A DNA stretch of 64,000 nucleotides from Candidatus Yanofskybacteria bacterium RIFCSPHIGHO2_01_FULL_44_24 (GTDB lineage Bacteria > Patescibacteriota > Minisyncoccia > 2-02-FULL-40-12 > GWA2-44-9). A model generated the notes under the pieces. The model was not told the DNA's origin. It saw nothing but the letters and a program-made list of their open reading frames with translations, and made no database searches. This document shows, one piece after another, positions 3,038 through 48,970 of this stretch. A program made the position numbers and the translations under genes. The DNA is taken from positions 1,016 through 65,015 of the forward strand of contig MGJK01000020.1 in NCBI GenBank assembly GCA_001794215.1. The letters run 5' to 3'. Position 1 is the stretch's first letter; each line of letters opens with the position of its first letter.

Positions 3038-3147
3038 TTCTTCAATTTACAATTTACAATTTACAATTTACAATTAATTTTCAATAACTCAGTAATTGAG
3101 AAATTGAATTATTTAATGAAAATTGAAAACTGAAAACTGAAAATTAG
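3038..3147. repeat. AT-rich heptamer tandem repeats: (CAATTTA)x4.6 at 3043-3075 and (GAAAACT)x3 at 3125-3146
   Basis: Direct reading of the sequence; the repeats fill the spacer between rnc and nusB. Confidence 0.8.
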
Positions 3148-3651
3148 TTATTCTTTGCTTTCTTTATCTTTATCCTTTGGTTCTTCATTCCCTTCTTTAT
3201 CTTTTGCCGGGGGCGCATCATCTTTTCCGGGTTCTCCGATTTCTCGATAAACCGTACCTAAAACTCCGTTAACAAATTTCCCGGAAGACTCGCCGCCGAA
3301 AGACTTGGCTAATTCAATCGACTCGTTAATGGCGACCTTCGGAGGCACCTCTTCCCTGTTTCCGAAAAGCAATTCATAAAGCCCGACCCGCAAGACATTC
3401 CTATCCACCACCGCAATCTGTTCAAGGGGCCACTGAGGAGCGGCTTTTTCAATAATTAGATCGAGTTCTTTAATATGGCCCATTACGCCGTCAATGAGCT
3501 GGTGAACAAAGGTGCTGTCTTCAAGGCCGGCCGCAAATTCCTCCAAGTTTCTTTTGACTATCTCTGCCAACTCGTCATTTTTCCTGCCTCGAAAATCCCA
3601 CTCATAGAGTGATTGCATAGCTACGCTTCTTGAAAGGTGCCGTGATGCCAA
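3148..3651 (-). CDS. nusB: Transcription antitermination factor NusB (TTG start)
   Basis: [17 protein letters not shown] aligns to the NusB N-terminal RRRARExAxQALY motif. The start codon is TTG. Confidence 0.85.
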
Positions 3652-4107: not shown

Positions 4108-4719
4108 TTAGTCCGGTACGGCATTGATATGGGCAATCCGATCGTCGTATTCGGCATTATGATTGACCAGCCGAATAGCCAAAAAAAACAAATAGGGGTG
4201 CTTTCTCAAGAAATTCGTCTTCCGATCGCTTTCTTTTTTTAACTTTTTAACCACAGAGAGAATCCCCGATTTCCCGGCTATTTCCGCGGCACGAACATCA
4301 ACCATCCAATGAGGCCGAAAGTCATCGCCAAATCTCTCCGCCTCTTCCGCATGAGCAAATTCATGAGCCAATAAGCCCGCTAACTCATCAGGGGTAAACT
4401 CAATCAACGCTTTCTCGGTTATGTAAATGCATTTATAAACCCAGAAGTAATAAGCGTTGAGATAATCTGCTTTGAAAACAATGACATAGCACGGATCATG
4501 GATAGACAGCGAGACTTTAAATCTTTTTCTTGCCTCATTAATCTGCTCATAGTATCGGACGACCTGGTCATTATACAACGAAGCGGCCGGGAAATCGGTT
4601 TTATGCTCTTCTGTCTCAAGAAATCCAAGAGCATAAATATTTATAAGAAGAAAACAGCCAAGCAGACCCGCAAAAAAACGAAAAATCATCCGCCCAAGCC
4701 AGTTTTTATCAAAGAACAT
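4108..4719 (-). CDS. Membrane-anchored HExxH zinc metallopeptidase-like protein
   Basis: N-terminal TM helix; LAHEFAH motif followed by EEAERFGDD. Confidence 0.45.
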   Translation of the reverse strand: MFFDKNWLGRMIFRFFAGLLGCFLLINIYALGFLETEEHKTDFPAASLYNDQVVRYYEQINEARKRFKVSLSIHDPCYVIVFKADYLNAYYFWVYKCIYITEKALIEFTPDELAGLLAHEFAHAEEAERFGDDFRPHWMVDVRAAEIAGKSGILSVVKKLKKESDRKTNFLRKHPYLFFLAIRLVNHNAEYDDRIAHINAVPD

Positions 4720-4884
4720 GCCCTACCTCTGCCTCTAAGCGGACCCGGAAAGCTTAAAACAACAGCAAGATTTGTCTATTTTACTTGTCCACACCTTTTT
4801 CTCATTGCCGGCCTCGCCACTAATGCTAAAATAGAGTTATAGATCCTAAGTTCTAAATCCGAAATCCTAAACAATCTATGTTTA

Positions 4885-4914
4885 GAAATTAGAAATTAGA
4901 AATTAGAAATTATT
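4885..4914. repeat. (GAAATTA)x4 tandem repeat directly abutting the dnaE TTG start
   Basis: gaaattagaaattagaaattagaaattatttTTG. Confidence 0.8.
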
Positions 4915-7900
4915 TTGAGATTTACTCACCTCCACACCCATTCCCACTATTCACTCTTGGACGGACTCTCGAAAATAGATGAATTAGTGGCTAAAGCCAA
5001 AGAACTGGGAATGGAAGCGCTCGCTCTCACCGATCATGGCGTCATGTATGGCGCCATTGAGTTTTATAAGAAAGCCTCCGCGGCCGGGATCAAACCGATC
5101 ATAGGCTGTGAAATGTATATTTCCGAAAACGGAATGCACGAAAAAAGAACGGGCATAGATGATAAGAGATATCACCTAGTGATATTGGCGGAAAATAATA
5201 CCGGATACAGAAATTTAATCAAACTCGTAACCGCCGCCCACCTTGAGGGCTTCTACTATAAGCCGCGCATTGATAAAGAACTACTGCGCAGCCACTCTGA
5301 GGGCCTCATCGGTCTTTCCGCCTGCCTCGGAGGAGAAATTTCCAGAGCGGTTCTCGCAAAAAACAACGAGAAGGCCAAAAGAGTTGCATTAGAATATCAG
5401 GAGATTTTCGGAAAGGGAAACTTTTATCTTGAGGTTCAACAGCATCACCATATCGAAGAGCAGAATTTTGTCACACCCGAATTAATTAAGATATCAAAGG
5501 AAACCGGAATTCCTTTAGTCGCCACCCAAGACTCGCACTACACCCATACTGAAGACGCTCATGCCCACGATGTTCTGCTTGCGGTTCAAACCGGGAATAA
5601 ATTAGATGACAGCGACCGACTGACAATGAGAGATGATGACTTTTCATTGCTTAACGGAGAAATGATGCACGAAAAATTCAAGAATCTCGATCAGGAGTCA
5701 ATCAGTGAGGCATTTGAAAATACCAACAAGATCGCCGAACGATGCAACGTAAAAATAGACCTTGGCAAAACCCAGCTTCCTAACTTCGAATTGCCTAAAG
5801 GCTATCAATCAAGCGATGAGTATCTTCGAGAATTAAGCTCTGCCGGACTAAAGACGCGGTATGGAGATCAGATTGCCCCAGAAATACTGGACCGGCTGAA
5901 CTACGAGCTGAAAGTCATCAAACAAACGGGATTTGCTTCATATTTCTTAATCGTTCAGGACTTTGTAAACTGGGCGAAGAAAGGGGGTATCGTTGTCGGC
6001 CCGGGACGAGGATCAGCTGCCGGAAGCTTGGTTTCTTACCTACTCAATATAACCAATGTCGACCCGCTGAAATACGGACTGCTGTTTGAAAGGTTTCTAA
6101 ACCCTGAAAGGATTTCAATGCCCGACATAGACCTCGACTTTGATGACGCCAGAAGAAACGAGGTCCTGGAATATGTCGCCGAAAAGTACGGACACGATCA
6201 TTTCGCCCAGATCATAACTTTCGGTACTATGGCTGCCCGCGGCGGAATAAGGGACGCTGGAAGAGCTCTGGGATATTCCTACGATTTCTGCGATCAGATC
6301 GCTAAGATGATCCCCTTCAATCCTAACCAGGGAGAAAAGACCGGCCATCTTAAAAGATGCCTTGAGACCGTTGACGACCTAAGAAACATCTATAACACCA
6401 ACCTTGACGCCAAAAACCTGATAGATTCGGCCATGAAGCTTGAAGGAGTAGCCCGCCATGCCTCCACTCATGCCTGTGCTGTTATCATCACTCCTCAACC
6501 CCTGACCAACTACTTACCCCTTCAGCGCGGCACAAACGAGAGTGACATCATCACCCAATACGAAATGCACGCCGTTGAAGATTTGGGACTTTTAAAAATG
6601 GACTTCCTTGGATTGGCAAACCTGACTATTATCGAAAATACCCTGAAAGAAATAAAAAGAAACCACGGATTAGACCTGAATATCGATTCCATACCCCTTG
6701 ATGACAAAAAAACATATCAGCTTCTCCAAAAAGCCCAAACAACCGGAGTATTCCAATTAGAAAGCTCGGGAATGAAAAAATACCTGAAAGATTTAAAACC
6801 CAGCCAGTTTGAAGATATCGCTCTGATGATCGCTTTATACCGTCCCGGGCCGATGGATCTTATCCCCGAATTCATAGCCCGCAAGCATGGTCAGAGCAAA
6901 GTTACATATCTTCATCCAAGCCTTGAGCCCGTGCTAAACAGCACTTACGGCATTATGGTTTATCAAGAACAGCTTATGGCCGCCGCTCAGGCCTTAGCCG
7001 GCCTTTCACTGGCCCAAGCAGATATCCTTCGAAAGGCGGTAGGTAAAAAAATAAAAACCTTAGTCCAGGAGCAAAAAGACAAGGTTATAAACGGCTGTCT
7101 GAAAAATAACGTAAGGAAAGAGGTAGCTGAGAAATTTTGGCAGCTAATAGAGCCGTTCGATCGATACGGATTCAATAAAAGCCATGCCATCAGCTACGCC
7201 GCCATAGCTTATCAAACCGCCTATCTTAAAGCGCATTACCCCGTGGAATTCATGGCTGCGTTCATGAACAGTGAAACCGGAGACGTAGAGCGGGTGGCCT
7301 TCCTCATTGAGGAATGCAAAGAAATGGGCATCGAAGTCCTTCCCCCGTCTATCAACCACAGTTATGAAAAATTCGCGGTAGTTCCTTCAAACAGTTCCGG
7401 ACAGATGAAGCCGTCAATCAGATTCGGGCTGACGGCCGTTAAAAACGTAGGTGAGAATGTCGTTTCCGCAATTATTCAGGAAAGGGGAGAAAACGGTCCG
7501 TTCAAAGTAATCGATGATTTTATTTCAAGGATAAATAACAAAGACTTGAATAAGAAATCCCTTGAGAGTTTGATCAGATGCGGAGCCCTCGACATATTTG
7601 GAGAGCGCAATACGCTCCTGGCCAACATAGAACAATTGTTATACTACTCCAGGGAAAAACAGAAAAAATCTTCGATGGGCCAAGCCAGCCTCTTTGGAGA
7701 AGTGACGGATACGGAATTACCGCCCCTTCGTCTTGCCATAGCCGAACCGGCTCATAAATGGGAAAAATTATTGTGGGAGAAAGAGTTGTTGGGATTGTTT
7801 GTTTCCGATCACCCTCTCAACAGCTACCAAACTCAGCTTAGACTGGAAAAGGTTACGCCCATAAAGAGTATTTCAATCAATACTCCGGGGCCGATAAAAA

Positions 7901-21177: not shown

Positions 21178-22308
21178 TCACCTCAGCTCCGCTCCAAATT
21201 GTTTGACGGTTTCTTTGTAAATCTTTCCTTGGATAGGATCGATCTCCTCGGTCGTAAGAGTCCTCTCATTAGAACGATAAACGATTCGATAAGTATAGCT
21301 CAGTTTCTCTTTTCCGAATTTTTCGGCATTTTCATATTTATCCAGAAGTTCGACTTGCTCCACTAAGTCCCCTCCTATATGGCGGATCAGATCAAAATAG
21401 TTATTCGGCACGAACGTTTTCTCAACCACAAAAGAAATATCCCGAGTAATGGGCGGAAATTTGGAAACTTCTTTAAATTTATTTCCGAGCTTAAGCTGTT
21501 TCTTCACCCGAGGATCATCGGACCATAATAACCGTATGTCGGGCAGTTCCATGGAAGCCATCGCCAAACGCTCTAATCCAAACCCGAAAGCCCAGCCGTT
21601 ATATCCGGTTACTCCGAAATTTGATAAAACGCTCTTTCTTGGTAAGCCTGATCCGACCATCTCCACCCATTTCCCGTTAATCTCCGCCTCCATCTCGTAG
21701 CTCGGATCGGTATAAGGGAAAGTATGCTCGTAAAAACGGAATTTAATATTTTCTCCAAAAATGCTTTTTCCAATCTTAGAAAGAGTATCTTTCAAATCAT
21801 CCGCCGCAACAGTTTGCTTACTGTCGGGAGCAAGGTAGAGTCCGCCGATCTGGTGAAAAACATTCATGTGGCTACGGTCGATTTCATCCTTTCTGTAGAC
21901 CTTGCCATAACAAACTGCCCCGAAGGATTCGTTTTTATTAATACGCCCTTGAATTTCTGGATGATTCAAATAATAGTACCAGAATGCGGTGTCATGGGTT
22001 CTTAAAACATTTTTCTCGTCAACATAATAAGTGTCCGACTTACTGCGGGCCGGATGACCTTCGGGCATATTAAAAAGATCGAATAGAATTTTTGTCGGAA
22101 TTATTTCCGGTATTTCAACGACATCGAACCCCCTCAGGACGCTTAGGGTCCGGTCGACTATTTCTTTCAAAGGGCTGTCTGAAGTCCGCGACAAGTCGGG
22201 CATATCTAAATACCTCTTTATCCTTCCACTTTCAAAATCACTTCTTTGATTAAGCTTGTCTCTTAGAATATGGGCTTCCTTGGAAACAATTTTGATATAT
22301 TTACCCAT
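21178..22308 (-). CDS. pheS: Monomeric phenylalanyl-tRNA synthetase: PheS catalytic core fused to a C-terminal FDX-ACB-like anticodon-binding domain
   Basis: Class II motifs (FNMPEGHPARSKSDTYY; GFGLERLAMA). The C-terminal ~95 aa (KFPPITRDISFVVEK...YTYRIVYRS) resemble the PheT/mitochondrial FDX-ACB domain. No pheT is adjacent. Confidence 0.8.
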   Translation of the reverse strand: MGKYIKIVSKEAHILRDKLNQRSDFESGRIKRYLDMPDLSRTSDSPLKEIVDRTLSVLRGFDVVEIPEIIPTKILFDLFNMPEGHPARSKSDTYYVDEKNVLRTHDTAFWYYYLNHPEIQGRINKNESFGAVCYGKVYRKDEIDRSHMNVFHQIGGLYLAPDSKQTVAADDLKDTLSKIGKSIFGENIKFRFYEHTFPYTDPSYEMEAEINGKWVEMVGSGLPRKSVLSNFGVTGYNGWAFGFGLERLAMASMELPDIRLLWSDDPRVKKQLKLGNKFKEVSKFPPITRDISFVVEKTFVPNNYFDLIRHIGGDLVEQVELLDKYENAEKFGKEKLSYTYRIVYRSNERTLTTEEIDPIQGKIYKETVKQFGAELR

Positions 22309-22510
22309 TATTATTTCTTCTGCTGATTATCCTCAAAGCCATAAAAGCGGTCAAAACCATACCGAGCATAGACATCAAAAACGAAGCGAAAAATAAGGCT
22401 TTTATTAAAAGCCCGACACGATAAGGATCGAAGTTGACCGCTATCATAGCAAGTCCGCCCAGTGAAAGGACGGTGATTAAAAAGACAATAAAAAACTGCC
22501 AATTAATCAT
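22301..22510 (-). CDS. hypothetical small membrane protein
   Basis: 69 aa with two hydrophobic helices. Confidence 0.3.
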   Translation of the reverse strand: MINWQFFIVFLITVLSLGGLAMIAVNFDPYRVGLLIKALFFASFLMSMLGMVLTAFMALRIISRRNNNG

Positions 22511-22532: not shown

Positions 22533-22812
22533 CGCGGGCGACGGGGCTCGAACCCGCAACCTCATCCGTGCACTTATCTAATATTTTCATATTAGGGTGG
22601 ACTATATCTTGCTCGTGTCTCAATAGAATTAAGATTTAGAGTCTCTGGTATCTAGTCTCTACGGCGCCCCCGCCATAGCGGGGTTCCCACGGTATTACCC
22701 GAGCTTTCGCTGTAGGGCTTCACCGTTATCCCAAAGTTATTCATCTTATAGTTTCCTATAAGAGCTGCGTGACTCCACAGGGATGCGATCTAACCAATTG
22801 ATCTACGCCCGC
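22533..22812 (-). tRNA. tRNA-Asp(GUC) interrupted by a group I intron between positions 35 and 36 (exon 1 22812-22777, exon 2 22570-22533)
   Basis: Spliced sequence: GCGGGCGTAGATCAATTGGTTAGATCGCATCCCTGT|CACGGATGAGGTTGCGGGTTCGAGCCCCGTCGCCCGCG. The cloverleaf is perfect. T-arm GCGGGTTCGAGYCCCGT matches E. coli tRNA-Asp. The discriminator is G73. The anticodon loop is CUGUCAC. CCA is not encoded. Confidence 0.85.
22571..22776 (-). mobile_element. Group I self-splicing intron (IC3 / Azoarcus-like), ~206 nt, with no internal ORF
   Basis: P1 by exon CUGU|G pairing with IGS CGCAG, placing a U.G wobble at the splice site. P2 hairpin CTTATAG-GAAA-CTATAAG. A GCGAAAGC GNRA tetraloop. The conserved GUAGAGACUAGA (J8/7-P7) word. 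The S element AAGATATAGTCC. Terminal G before the 3' splice site. Confidence 0.8.
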
Positions 22813-23564
22813 AATAAATTTTTAAAATAATGCTCAAATATAACCTTTTTTCTGCTTAAATACAACTTCCCGGCATCCTTATACATAAAGTTATATAGAC
22901 CAAAGCTGTCGTTAGAAGAGAAACATAATCGATGACCTTGGGCATAGAATAGAGTCCCTCCCTTAACAACCGCGTACTTTTTTAATACGCCCCAAAGTCC
23001 TTTTAAAAATTTCTTACTTCCTGAGGTAAGGCCGGTTATAATAATTTTGCTTTTATGCTTGCGGTCTTTTTTCTGATATTCCGACGCAGATACATGTCCA
23101 TCACCATCAAAATAGCCTCTTAAAAAATGTGGGGCAAGCGCTCGAGGTATCTTTGGCATTTTTAGAATTAGGCTTTTATTCGGCATAAAGCCCAGACGTA
23201 GAAGATCCTTGAATATCTCCTTGCTTCCAATCTGTATTTGATATGCCTTTTTCCAGTTTTTATTTTGTAAGTTTTTCTTTCTGATATAAATTTTATGATC
23301 AGAGCCTAAACAAAACTTGATCTTCTCAAGAATATCTCGGTCGGTACTATAGAATGCGATAAAATGAGCGCCTCGCTTGTTTTTGATCATATTCCCATCA
23401 GCCGCAAAAAACCCTAAAACATAAGTCATTTCTGGCGACCAATTCTTGAAAAAATCCTCATTCTTAGCTTTAAATACGGGCATTTTACCAATAAATTCTA
23501 CCGCATTTCCGGCAAAATTAAAAGCCCGCATAAAGCGGGCTTTTGAAAATTTTATCTGTCCCAA
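22803..23564 (-). CDS. LAGLIDADG homing endonuclease (double-motif), free-standing, 3' end overlapping the tRNA-Asp 5' end by 10 nt
   Basis: Two LAGLIDADG motifs: LGFFAADGNM and LRGYFDGDGHV. The likely true start is MPVFKAKNEDF at about 23483. The stop TAG lies inside the tRNA acceptor stem. Confidence 0.8.
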   Translation of the reverse strand: MGQIKFSKARFMRAFNFAGNAVEFIGKMPVFKAKNEDFFKNWSPEMTYVLGFFAADGNMIKNKRGAHFIAFYSTDRDILEKIKFCLGSDHKIYIRKKNLQNKNWKKAYQIQIGSKEIFKDLLRLGFMPNKSLILKMPKIPRALAPHFLRGYFDGDGHVSASEYQKKDRKHKSKIIITGLTSGSKKFLKGLWGVLKKYAVVKGGTLFYAQGHRLCFSSNDSFGLYNFMYKDAGKLYLSRKKVIFEHYFKNLLRA

Positions 23565-25009
23565 GACTCTTTCTGGGCGGCCAAAGAAAGCTTAACCAAA
23601 TGCTTCCTTGGGTTCTTCATGAAAATCTCTCGAGCTTCCTGAAGAGACATCCCGCCCAAATAACTGACAGTGGATGCAAGGTGGCCGGCTATCTCTCTGA
23701 TGATCGGGATCACAGATCCTTTGTACTCTATCTTTTTCTCAAGTCCCTCTGGACTTAGTTTGGAAGAGGTTTCATAAGGATCGTCTACCTCTTCGGCTCG
23801 AAGCCTTTCATACATAGCCTCACGGGAAGCCATACCCCGGAATATCTTGGCCTTTCTGCCGGTTGAATCTCTGAAAACGAGACCGGGAGTTTCATCGGTT
23901 CCGGCAATAAGTCCTCCAACCATAACCGATTCTGCTCCCAAAAGAAGAGCCGAGGCGATGTGTCCGTCTCTCTTTATTCCCCCATCAGCTATGATTGGAA
24001 CATCAGAAACTCTGGCACAATCATAGATAGCCTGAGCCTGAGGAACGCCTATATTGGTATTAAATCTGGTCGTGCAAGCCGATCCCGGTCCAAGTCCGAT
24101 CTTCAGACCGTTTACGCCCAAATCCTGATAGACTTTCACTGCGTCCGGGTCAACAATATTGCCGACAACCAATTCTGCTTCTGGAAATTTACTCCTGAGA
24201 TTCTTAACCGCTTCAAGGCCAACATCCGATTGGAAGTTAGCGATATCCATAATTAGGACATCCGCTCCGATCTTGATCAGTTCAGCCGTACGCTCTATAT
24301 AATCTCCGGTGGCGCCGACAGCCGCACCGACCACGAGTCGTCCGTTGGTATCTTTGTTGGCTAATGGATAGAGTCCGAGATTTTCGATATCTTTAGAAGT
24401 TATCAGACCGACAAGTTTCCTATCTTTGTCGACCAAAGGAAGCTTCTCAAGTCGGTTTCTATCCAAAATCTGGCGAGCCTTTGAAAAAGAAACGTCCGGC
24501 GAGGCCGTAATCAAATCTTTTTCCGATTTCATCCTTTCAGCCACGAGCTGATCATCGGAAGCAAATCTGACATCCCTCGAGCTAAGCAGTCCGAGCAACT
24601 TGCCGCTGTCGTTTATGACGACCAAACAGCCGATTTTTTCTCTTTCCATTATTTTACGGGCTTCGCCGATAGTGCTCCCCTTGGAAATACTCCGGGGATT
24701 TTCAATTACTGAGCTCTCTTTACGCTTGACCTCTTCGACTTTTTTACATTGATCCCCTATGCCGAGGTACCGATGGATAATACCGATTCCGCCTTCTCTG
24801 GCGAAGGCAATAGCCATACGGGCACCCGTTATCGTGTCCATATTGGCGGAAACGACGGGCACATTAAGAGAAACATGCTCTGAAAACCGCGAAATCAGGG
24901 ATATTCCCTTTCTGCTTTTAGCCTTTCCCCAACCGGGAGGAACCAAAAAATCATCAAAAGTACAGCCTCTGAGCTGATTTAAAAGCCACTGATCCTGCCG
25001 GCTCTTCAC
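23552..25009 (-). CDS. guaB: IMP dehydrogenase
   Basis: CBS pair plus catalytic loop IGLGPGSACTTR and GGLIAGTDETPG. Confidence 0.9.
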   Translation of the reverse strand: MKSRQDQWLLNQLRGCTFDDFLVPPGWGKAKSRKGISLISRFSEHVSLNVPVVSANMDTITGARMAIAFAREGGIGIIHRYLGIGDQCKKVEEVKRKESSVIENPRSISKGSTIGEARKIMEREKIGCLVVINDSGKLLGLLSSRDVRFASDDQLVAERMKSEKDLITASPDVSFSKARQILDRNRLEKLPLVDKDRKLVGLITSKDIENLGLYPLANKDTNGRLVVGAAVGATGDYIERTAELIKIGADVLIMDIANFQSDVGLEAVKNLRSKFPEAELVVGNIVDPDAVKVYQDLGVNGLKIGLGPGSACTTRFNTNIGVPQAQAIYDCARVSDVPIIADGGIKRDGHIASALLLGAESVMVGGLIAGTDETPGLVFRDSTGRKAKIFRGMASREAMYERLRAEEVDDPYETSSKLSPEGLEKKIEYKGSVIPIIREIAGHLASTVSYLGGMSLQEAREIFMKNPRKHLVKLSLAAQKESWDR

Positions 25010-48604: not shown

Positions 48605-48970
48605 GGGGATGTCGGGCTTCGACGAAGCTTACGACCGATAAATGCTGGGGGTGGCATGATCGTTCAGCCACGGAAATCACATCCGATCAATTGAATAGGT
48701 GCCAAAAATTCACCTAATTACGCTTTCGCCTAACATCGTTTAGGTAAGCCATTCCACCGCGGTGTCTACTGGCGGATCATGGAGTGTCATATTGTAGACT
48801 GGACAGTTTTCGTTTTTTTTCTTCCGGAGGCTGTTGAATAAATTAAAAGAAATAGCCGTAGATTATTTTGTCGGTTTTCTACTTTACGGCGAAAGACTAA
48901 ATCGTCTATCTCGGTACACATTTATCGGTATAACTTTCGGACGTGGATTCAACTTCCACCATCTCCACCA
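48605..48970 (+). ncRNA. ssrA: tmRNA (SsrA), one-piece, ~366 nt; tag peptide AKNSPNYAFA
   Basis: 5' GGGGAUGUCGGGCUUCGACG fits the tmRNA 5' consensus. 3' GGACGUGGAUUCAACUUCCACCAUCUCCACCA matches the E. coli 3' end GGACGCGGGUUCAACUCCCGCCAGCUCCACCA. Resume codon GCC at 48701; reading frame GCC AAA AAT TCA CCT AAT TAC GCT TTC GCC TAA with the stop in a hairpin. Confidence 0.9.

Follow-up and report, generated by a model that had tools for sequence, protein, structure and literature searches.

Group I introns at position 35/36 of the transfer RNA (tRNA) genes for Asp and Asn have been described in Patescibacteria and shown to self-splice in vitro (Nakagawa et al., mSystems 2026, PMC13011429); in that survey, endonuclease genes were sought only inside introns of more than 500 bp, and the tRNA introns of Patescibacteria were concluded to be mostly without homing endonucleases and hence to move little. 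In the same radiation (the candidate phyla radiation, CPR), LAGLIDADG genes reside inside group I introns of the 16S and 23S ribosomal RNA (rRNA) genes (Tsurumaki et al. 2024, PMC11270868), in a paper that does not mention tRNA. Collaborative, or trans, homing is documented in phages for F-CphI and the psbA intron of cyanophage S-PM2, for the DNA polymerase intron of T3/T7-like phages, and for T4 mobE with I-TevIII (PMC3984707; PMC2790892), and intronless homing is represented by SegB and the other seg and mob genes of T4, SegB being a GIY-YIG enzyme encoded in the T4 tRNA gene cluster (PMC2988022 and PMC13096335). The present analysis concerns a free-standing LAGLIDADG homing endonuclease gene that adjoins an intron-containing tRNA-Asp(GUC) gene in a 64,000-nt stretch of contig MGJK01000020.1 from a Candidatus Yanofskybacteria genome; this whole stretch is called the window, all coordinates refer to it, and every feature of the locus lies on its minus strand.

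On balance, the gene probably belongs to a selfish family of free-standing LAGLIDADG homing endonucleases specialized on tRNA-Asp, for which the intron would be a separate element that is not required. The marks of a homing lineage with a single target are recognized here because the site is fixed, presence and absence are polymorphic, decay is occasional, base composition is atypical, and relatives have other targets. Database searches returned 1149 homologues of about 225 aa, and those with a named source among the best 120 come almost all from CPR/Patescibacteria; a scan of one genome per GTDB species returned at least 494 relatives, the best 80 of which (42–68% identity, all CPR) were compared locus by locus. 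Three of these loci were not evaluable, as their contigs end 8–22 nt past the protein match, and in all of the other 77 a tRNA-Asp(GUC) gene lies directly 3' of the endonuclease gene on the same strand. In 50 of 74 loci, the open reading frame (ORF) extends into the tRNA, where a TAG terminates it; the overlap measures 10–11 nt in 24 of these loci (as in the window), 15 nt in 18, 21–24 nt in six, and more in two, and the non-overlapping loci mostly leave a gap of 1–27 nt between ORF and tRNA. Upstream, a tRNA-Met(CAU) gene is found on the same strand within 700 nt in 43 of 76 loci, and within 30 nt of the start codon in eight of those 43. Read from these sequences, the homologues are a large family of free-standing LAGLIDADG genes whose sole niche, Patescibacteria-wide, is the 5' flank of tRNA-Asp(GUC).

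No description of a free-standing LAGLIDADG gene on the leader of tRNA-Asp was found in open-access papers and bioRxiv preprints; the 35/36 intron and the occurrence of LAGLIDADG enzymes in CPR are already known, and what is apparently undescribed is the docking of such a family on the leader of tRNA-Asp throughout the phylum, the repeated placement of its stop codon within the tRNA, and the tRNA-half relics presented below. The LAGLIDADG genes of CPR rRNA introns share with this family the phylum, the enzyme superfamily, and conserved RNA genes as targets, but they are intron-encoded, whereas here the gene is free-standing and tRNA processing would stand in for splicing. SegB offers a similar likeness, being a free-standing gene among tRNA genes that is thought to cut the tRNA-region DNA of relatives without the gene and to be inherited via marker exclusion or co-conversion. 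It differs in belonging to another enzyme family and to a phage genome, and in showing no overlap between ORF and tRNA, no phylum-wide docking on one tRNA species, and no reported tRNA-half scars.

In the window, the last 10 nt of the ORF are tRNA nucleotides 1–10, that is, the 7-nt acceptor strand followed by U8, A9, and G10, and the stop codon TAG (22805..22803) coincides with U8-A9-G10. The original prediction, made from the DNA letters and a list of ORFs, had described a double-motif LAGLIDADG ORF directly 5' of tRNA-Asp on the same strand, free-standing and outside the intron, whose final 10 nt, stop included, begin the acceptor side of the tRNA. Each of these statements agrees with what was found: both quoted motifs (LGFFAADGNM and LRGYFDGDGHV) are present, Pfam LAGLIDADG_3 (PF14528) matches the ORF in two stretches with an E value of 7.8e-16, the intron starts 26 nt beyond the ORF end, no intein or intron structure surrounds the gene, and Rfam places no RNA family over the endonuclease ORF. 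Only the 5' end, which had been drawn at 23564, proved to be over-extended. The mechanical ORF (22803..23564) opens with a TTG and encodes 253 aa, and this TTG overlaps both the stop codon (23552) and the terminator hairpin of the upstream gene guaB; all homologues begin with M-P-[IV]-x-K, which corresponds to the ATG at 23483. On these two grounds, the start was moved to this ATG, which gives a gene of 226 aa. The TTG was rejected accordingly, as was the ATG at 23531 of the NCBI model (242 aa), which likewise lies within the guaB stop and terminator. That the ORF is a real gene rather than a chance frame is indicated by its 1149 homologues and by a ratio of nonsynonymous to synonymous substitution (dN/dS) of 0.06–0.13 between close pairs of intact genes, with dS near saturation. 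Its G+C (GC) content of 36.4% compares with 44.1% for the window and 47.7% for guaB, and it lies 8 points under that of the adjoining genes. Twenty-one contigs with an identical protein were read, and all 10 places listed have the arrangement of the window. The features of the locus are collected in the table.

Table. Features of the tRNA-Asp locus and its surroundings, with coordinates in the window and the basis of each assignment
Feature	Position	Strand	Basis
Free-standing LAGLIDADG homing endonuclease gene	22803..23483	-	Pfam, AlphaFold, Foldseek, homologue starts, GC
10-nt overlap of ORF and tRNA (..G CGG GCG TAG)	22803..22812	-	Sequence
tRNA-Asp(GUC) exon 1, through U35, 36 nt	22777..22812	-	Sequence; intron-mode ARAGORN; homologous position
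ORF-less group I intron, 206 nt, anticodon-loop position 35/36	22571..22776	-	Rfam RF00028; homology
tRNA-Asp exon 2, C36 to discriminator G73	22533..22570	-	Sequence and ARAGORN
-10-like box TAGAAT, 11 nt upstream of the ATG	23495..23500	-	Read from sequence
guaB intrinsic terminator hairpin GCCCGC TTTAT GCGGGC, then T run	23524..23540	-	Terminator-like site 23518-23546 and sequence
guaB (IMP dehydrogenase), upstream neighbor	23552..25009	-	ORF; Pfam IMPDH and CBS domains on identical locus
Small hydrophobic ORF, 69 aa, between tRNA-Asp and pheS	22301-22510	-	Conserved at same position in L081, L088, L091
Transfer-messenger RNA (tmRNA) gene, tag peptide AKNSPNYAFA	48605-48970	+	Rfam, 132 bits

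The tRNA downstream of the gene was not reported at this locus by ARAGORN in its default mode, and the intron-mode call of Ala(UGC), with the intron at 33/34 after a 2-nt register shift in the 5' direction, was rejected. The gene is assigned to Asp(GUC) rather than Ala(UGC) because it has G3-C70 instead of G3-U70, G73, and C38, because the guide pairing GCAG/CUGU fits this register, and because tRNA-Asp occupies the 77 homologous loci; mis-annotation of such genes as Ala(UGC) has been documented (PMC13011429). Exon 1 (22812..22777) reads GCGGGCG TA GATC AATTGGTTA GATC G CATCC CUGU, and exon 2 is not followed by an encoded CCA. The intron follows a U and ends in a 3'-terminal G (boundaries CUGU/GG...GUG/CAC), its guide sequence GCAG pairs with the exon sequence CUGU through a U-G pair at U35, and Rfam Intron_gpI (RF00028) matches 22788..22578 with 57.8 bits against a gathering score of 50. 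Insertion falls after U35 in the 7-nt anticodon loop, and the spliced product would be a canonical tRNA-Asp(GUC) cloverleaf. The intron of the window is, by its sequence, a member of the published patescibacterial 35/36 class, with which it shares the site, the Ala(UGC) mis-call, and a size of about 200 nt; the difference is the upstream LAGLIDADG gene, which is not reported for that class and has no mention in the text of PMC13011429.

An unusual T arm (GTGGGGTCAGCACCCAT, without TTCRA) was observed in some tRNA-Asp genes (L071 at about 4690-4990, L044, and L049), and the L071 tRNA is reported by neither default nor intron-mode ARAGORN. A further observation concerns intron-containing tRNA-Met(CAU) genes 1–2 kb from the endonuclease/tRNA-Asp locus in L009 (about 6174-6495, plus strand), L059 (about 3126-3427, minus strand), and L120 (2677-2978, minus strand); these introns are group I, and those of L009 and L059 score 62–69 bits in Rfam. 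In some lineages, tRNA introns thus cluster in the neighborhood of the endonuclease and tRNA-Asp.

Absence of a LAGLIDADG fold would have spoken against the assignment of the protein, and such a fold was detected by Pfam, AlphaFold, and Foldseek alike. The AlphaFold model (predicted local distance difference test, pLDDT, 91; predicted template modeling score, pTM, 0.88) consists of two repeats, each with a helix and four strands. Its best Foldseek match in the PDB is I-Tsp061I (E 2.9e-11), next to which stand I-AniI, bI3, I-OnuI, and I-SceI, and the top 50 PDB matches are LAGLIDADG enzymes, maturases, or intein endonuclease domains only; I-AniI and bI3 act as maturases in fungal mitochondria. 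A profile of 29 family members likewise finds 2dch (I-Tsp061I) with an E value of 2.7e-8, and I-AniI weakly. The predicted catalytic residues are the acidic ones that close the two motifs, D29 (GFFAADG) and D128 (YFDGDG); across 29 aligned sequences, D128 does not vary, and D29 reaches a conservation of at least 90%. As modeled, the protein is an intact single-chain, two-domain LAGLIDADG homing endonuclease with a pseudo-dimeric alpha-beta-beta-alpha-beta-beta-alpha fold, a class whose enzymes cut both strands at specific sites and leave 4-nt 3' overhangs. The archaeal enzymes of the I-Tsp061I/I-DmoI type (PDB 2dch) are thus closest in solved fold and in sequence, as compact single chains of about 200 aa with two motifs, although identity is only about 20% and theirs are intron-encoded in archaeal rRNA genes. 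With 226 aa and one Pfam family, the protein has no extra domain. The label 'WhiA', which one source gives to one homologue, is not supported, as the catalytic Asp is retained, an extra domain is absent, and the gene itself is missing from most related loci.

The original prediction had proposed that related genomes be compared for tRNA-Asp loci without the gene, and such loci exist. Among 80 related metagenome loci with 67–78% identical PheS, 19 show a tRNA-Asp; the endonuclease gene is present in five and absent from 14, or 13 distinct loci, L081 being the same as L082. No endonuclease remnant was detected in these empty sites by hmmsearch with the family profile (E<10), and the long gaps in L099 and L102 are filled by pyrH. 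With guaB serving as the synteny anchor for filled and empty sites, tRNA-Asp follows guaB directly in L081, L082, L088, and L156; the full context of the window (guaB, tRNA-Asp, small membrane protein, pheS) is kept without the gene in L081 and L088, and L156 shares at least the direct succession of guaB and tRNA-Asp. Three other empty sites (L095, L097, and L142) are pairs of tRNA-Met and tRNA-Asp with spacers of 16–87 nt. The 69-aa hydrophobic ORF downstream of the tRNA has counterparts of 36–47% identity in L081, L088, and L091.

The clearest comparison is between L088, which is empty and intronless, and L001, which carries both gene and intron, because their tRNA exons differ by 1 nt and both have guaB, the terminator, and an extended -10 box upstream, with a leader that is common up to the insertion point. 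In L088, TGATAAAAT is followed by 23 nt and the tRNA; in L001, TGATAAAAT is followed by 13 nt, the ORF from its ATG to a terminal AATG, and TTTT directly before the tRNA. In the clade of these two loci, the insert amounts to little more than the ORF itself, which lies a few nucleotides ahead of tRNA +1. These comparisons show that the endonuclease gene is dispensable and that its presence or absence is polymorphic at an otherwise identical site. Decay is seen as well: in L092, where the intron is present, the endonuclease gene has lost profile positions 123–184, and with them the DGDG of the second motif, through an in-frame deletion; the guaB of this locus is, at 62%, the most similar to that of the window among the relatives fetched. 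L003 and L073 each have one nonsense codon. An in-frame TGA in L045 (4001-4639) was rejected as decay, as it falls on the invariant Gly86 (QIGSK to QL*SK); UGA is probably translated as Gly here (genetic code 25), and the copy is then probably intact. The same aquifer metagenomes (Ga0209542 and C687J35174) were observed to hold the filled allele of the window (L242 and L244) and related empty alleles (L081, L082, and L088); therefore, donor and potential recipient populations coexist.

The original prediction had raised two relations between gene and intron, namely collaborative or trans homing of both, and an intron that protects its own allele from cleavage. The intron interrupts 26 of the 77 tRNA-Asp genes beside the endonuclease gene, the other 51 being intronless; these 26 introns share the site of the window's intron and are homologous to it (58–72% identity), with the guide sequence TGCAGCT and the catalytic core conserved across all 27. 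In 20 intron-bearing loci, Rfam at its gathering score recognizes one tRNA-Asp intron only (L034, 53.3 bits), and the homology of the others is drawn from alignment. On a neighbor-joining tree of the endonucleases, the intron is patchy; distances between introns and endonucleases are nearly uncorrelated (rho 0.16, Mantel p ~0.1), and L029 and L072 have introns 83% identical, against 45% for their endonucleases. Conversely, L091 has the intron and no endonuclease gene. Consistent co-occurrence or co-inheritance of the gene and the ORF-less intron was therefore not found, and, judged by this distribution, the endonuclease gene does not require the intron, nor does the intron strictly depend on the gene.

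Strict collaborative homing, in which the enzyme recognizes the intronless anticodon-loop site, the intron confers immunity, and both move as a unit, is accordingly rather unlikely, although part of the evidence points toward it. Among distinct loci, 28 of 82 with the gene have the intron, as against one of 13 without the gene (Fisher one-sided p 0.047, two-sided 0.10), which makes a modest enrichment beside the gene possible; every copy in the small clade of the window adjoins an intron (those of the window, L001, and L002, and the one with the deletion in L092); the scars described below end at nucleotides 38–45, beside 35/36; and phages provide a precedent (reviewed in PMC3984707). Because 51 of 77 loci are intronless, L091 retains the intron alone, and the distance correlation is weak, strict collaborative homing is not the family rule and the intron is not a general means of self-protection. 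What stands of the original proposal is the higher frequency of the intron beside the gene and the proximity of the scars to the intron site, and what falls is protection as a general role. The phage systems resemble this locus in that co-conversion would carry both elements; here, by contrast, a tRNA gene on a bacterial chromosome is interrupted, the enzyme is of the LAGLIDADG type, and gene-bearing loci that lack the intron are twice as frequent as those that have it. The intron may rather be a separate self-splicing element that hitch-hikes on the endonuclease gene.

Indications of where the enzyme may cut come from scars upstream of the gene. About a quarter of loci have a decayed 5' half of tRNA-Asp in the 20–60 nt that precede the start codon: 19 of 79 loci contain the motif G[GA]T[TA][AG]-N9-11-[CAT]TGTCA (GGTTA-N9-11-CTGTCA) no more than 80 nt from the ATG, where the background expectation is 0.0008 per interval searched. 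Examples are L015 (GCAGCCGTGGTGTAGCCCGGTTAACACAACATCCTGTCA/TAGCGTATAATGAAAGC-ATG), L075 (...GGTTAGGATAATGCCCTGTCACGGGGTATAC...ATG), and L062 (...GGTTAGTGTATAATACTGTCAC-ATG). The relics end at tRNA nucleotide 38 in one endonuclease clade, at about 42–45 in others, and in one case at about 54, and three well-preserved relics end at nucleotides 24–40; ends at nucleotides 38–45 lie 3–10 nt from the 35/36 intron site. The relics of L015 (3066-3104), L039 (525-548), and L074 (3965-3991) are of another tRNA-Asp sequence type (GCNGCCG / GTGGTGTAGCC-GGTTAACAC or GCGGGCGTAGCTTAG) than the functional gene downstream (GGGCCNG...GGAG), which hints that either the relic or the functional gene was imported from another lineage. 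No 3'-half relics of tRNA-Asp were found beyond background downstream of the functional tRNA; in the scar, only the 5' half is duplicated.

In the simplest reading, these scars suggest that at least some integrations took place within tRNA-Asp, immediately downstream of the anticodon loop, and that a new 5' half came with the element; the cut would then lie only a few bases away from where the intron is inserted. On this ground, it is plausible that both elements converged on the anticodon loop and that the intron hitch-hikes. The relics have acquired -10 boxes and, with their stems decayed, still retain GGTTA and CTGTCAC; a role as promoter, as operator, or as microhomology in homing is possible, and the relics may travel with the element. 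Compared by eye, loci with and without the gene showed no obvious differences in the anticodon or variable region that could give immunity. Endonuclease ORFs are known that move together with a replacement for part of a host gene, for instance the atp6 element of Allomyces mitochondria. The likeness lies in a displaced, decaying host-gene fragment beside the element and a complete gene regenerated; the difference is that the Allomyces type concerns protein-coding genes and a 3'-end duplication, and here it is the 5' half of a tRNA that is duplicated.

The position of the gene also suggests how it might be expressed. The terminator of guaB (stems 23540-23535 and 23529-23524) separates guaB from the transcription unit of endonuclease and tRNA-Asp, and between the terminator and the ATG lies the TAGAAT box, which was not called by a consensus scan that requires a -35 element. 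A T(G)nTAnAAT box stands 11–14 nt before the ATG in L001, L092, and L038, and the equivalent box in the empty loci L088 and L081 stands 17–23 nt before tRNA +1; the coupled transcription anticipated by the original prediction is plausible on this ground, as the same -10 box directly precedes tRNA-Asp in relatives without the gene. We infer that the messenger RNA is leaderless or nearly so. The gene would then sit between the promoter of tRNA-Asp, or an upstream tRNA-Met, and tRNA +1, with transcription starting from the tRNA-Asp promoter (TAGAAT in the window) and elsewhere arriving by read-through from tRNA-Met. It would be transcribed as a 5' leader of about 0.7 kb on pre-tRNA-Asp and translated near-leaderless, and cleavage by ribonuclease P (RNase P) at +1 would free the tRNA and thereby render the insertion harmless, so that RNA processing would play the part that splicing plays for intron-borne endonuclease genes. 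Because the stop codon is inside the tRNA, only unprocessed transcripts would contain an in-frame stop; processed leaders would be non-stop messages, which, speculatively, could keep enzyme levels low. The tmRNA gene observed elsewhere in the window is relevant only to this speculative idea.

Spread of the preferred selfish family would proceed by cleavage of gene-less tRNA-Asp alleles, with break repair copying the gene in; at times, the element would enter the tRNA gene itself, directly past the anticodon loop, together with a replacement 5' half. Because the intron starts 36 bp into the tRNA gene, conversion from an intron-bearing donor would, by the general logic of homing, usually copy the intron too, which would make it a co-converted and frequent passenger, and, should the recognition site extend across the anticodon loop, the intron would protect the resident tRNA gene from cleavage. 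An extended form of this scheme, in which the locus would be a natural cut-and-rescue element founded on a tRNA gene that is essential and present in a single copy, is doubtful when all of its parts are taken jointly. The endonuclease would cut tRNA-Asp in the anticodon-loop region; a complete, resistant tRNA-Asp would be regenerated through the replacement 5' half or a carried 35/36 intron; the displaced 5' half would be re-used as promoter, perhaps also as operator or homing microhomology; and RNase P would gate expression, with the stop inside the tRNA and processed non-stop transcripts passing to tmRNA.

Related proteins are also carried by phages. More than 559 relatives with 30–39% identity occur on phage contigs, and none of 80 phage relatives lies beside tRNA-Asp, so that phage carriage of the endonuclease/tRNA-Asp cassette was not found in this set. 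As far as their contigs tell, the location of these relatives elsewhere is as would be expected for an endonuclease family with varied targets. The only one of the 80 that adjoins any tRNA is a 32%-identity relative at 3001-3672 of L218 (the 427-kb viral contig IMGVR_UViG_3300028920_000001), in a jumbo-phage tRNA cluster and 33 nt upstream of tRNA-Trp.

Several points weigh against a currently selfish and mobile family. Endonuclease divergence is roughly in step with that of the flanking genes (in L038, identity is 41% for guaB and 46% for the endonuclease; between L029 and L072, the flanks are 54–67% and the endonucleases 45% identical), and much of the distribution could reflect old vertical descent and loss instead of recent transfer. 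Broken copies are very few, which is unusual for a purely selfish gene at fixation. The scars could travel as the promoter of the element without being the record of every integration; a target in the anticodon arm would leave tRNA-Asp open to self-cutting in the 51 intronless gene-bearing loci; and promoter and leaderless start are read from sequence only. In hosts with 69–71% identical PheS, the endonucleases are only 43–51% identical to that of the window, the corresponding values for L008 being 59% and 55%. A good deal of vertical descent is likely; these identities show some incongruence with the host, the phylogeny consists of the neighbor-joining tree only, and transfer is not regarded as demonstrated.

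The same observations are those on which an alternative could build, namely that the protein is a domesticated LAGLIDADG protein with a host function tied to tRNA-Asp, as an operon regulator or processing factor, which is inherited vertically with repeated loss and is no longer mobile. Strong purifying selection (dN/dS 0.06–0.13), the scarcity of broken copies, divergence like that of the flanking genes, synteny conserved across deep CPR lineages, and the operator-like retention of GGTTA and CTGTCAC in upstream relics whose stems decay would all suit such a role. Domesticated relatives such as WhiA have lost their catalytic aspartates. Here, both aspartates are conserved, and neither catalytic loss, nor an extra helix-turn-helix domain, nor the status of a core gene was found; moreover, the gene is dispensable, being absent from 13 distinct tRNA-Asp loci of related genomes, its GC content is atypical, phage relatives abound, and a trans-acting factor would need no fixed place 0–27 nt from one gene, all of which render domestication improbable. 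A role as maturase that aids the folding or splicing of the tRNA-Asp intron, as in the case of I-AniI and bI3, is suggested by the rank of these two proteins among the best structural matches and by the adjoining intron in the window, but it is highly implausible, since the constant association expected of a maturase with its intron is lacking in two thirds of the family (51 of 77 members stand beside intronless tRNA-Asp), L091 keeps its intron without the gene, and a homologous tRNA-Asp intron self-splices in vitro free of protein (PMC13011429).

For a selfish family specialized on tRNA-Asp, the consequences extend beyond the single locus. The low-mobility conclusion of the 2026 survey would be revised for tRNA-Asp, as an intact LAGLIDADG gene adjoins this tRNA in hundreds of species; because the survey looked only inside introns and the gene is next door, intron mobility by co-conversion needs to be re-examined. 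The occurrence of all four states of gene and intron on nearly identical tRNA-Asp alleles provides a natural test bed for the pairing of an endonuclease with an ORF-less intron. At the same time, the family is a source of compact single-chain meganucleases of about 225 aa with a likely tRNA-gene target. Its genes also represent another route to harmlessness for a homing endonuclease, in which the gene occupies the 5' leader of a pre-tRNA, from which RNase P would remove it, and often borrows its stop codon from the tRNA itself.

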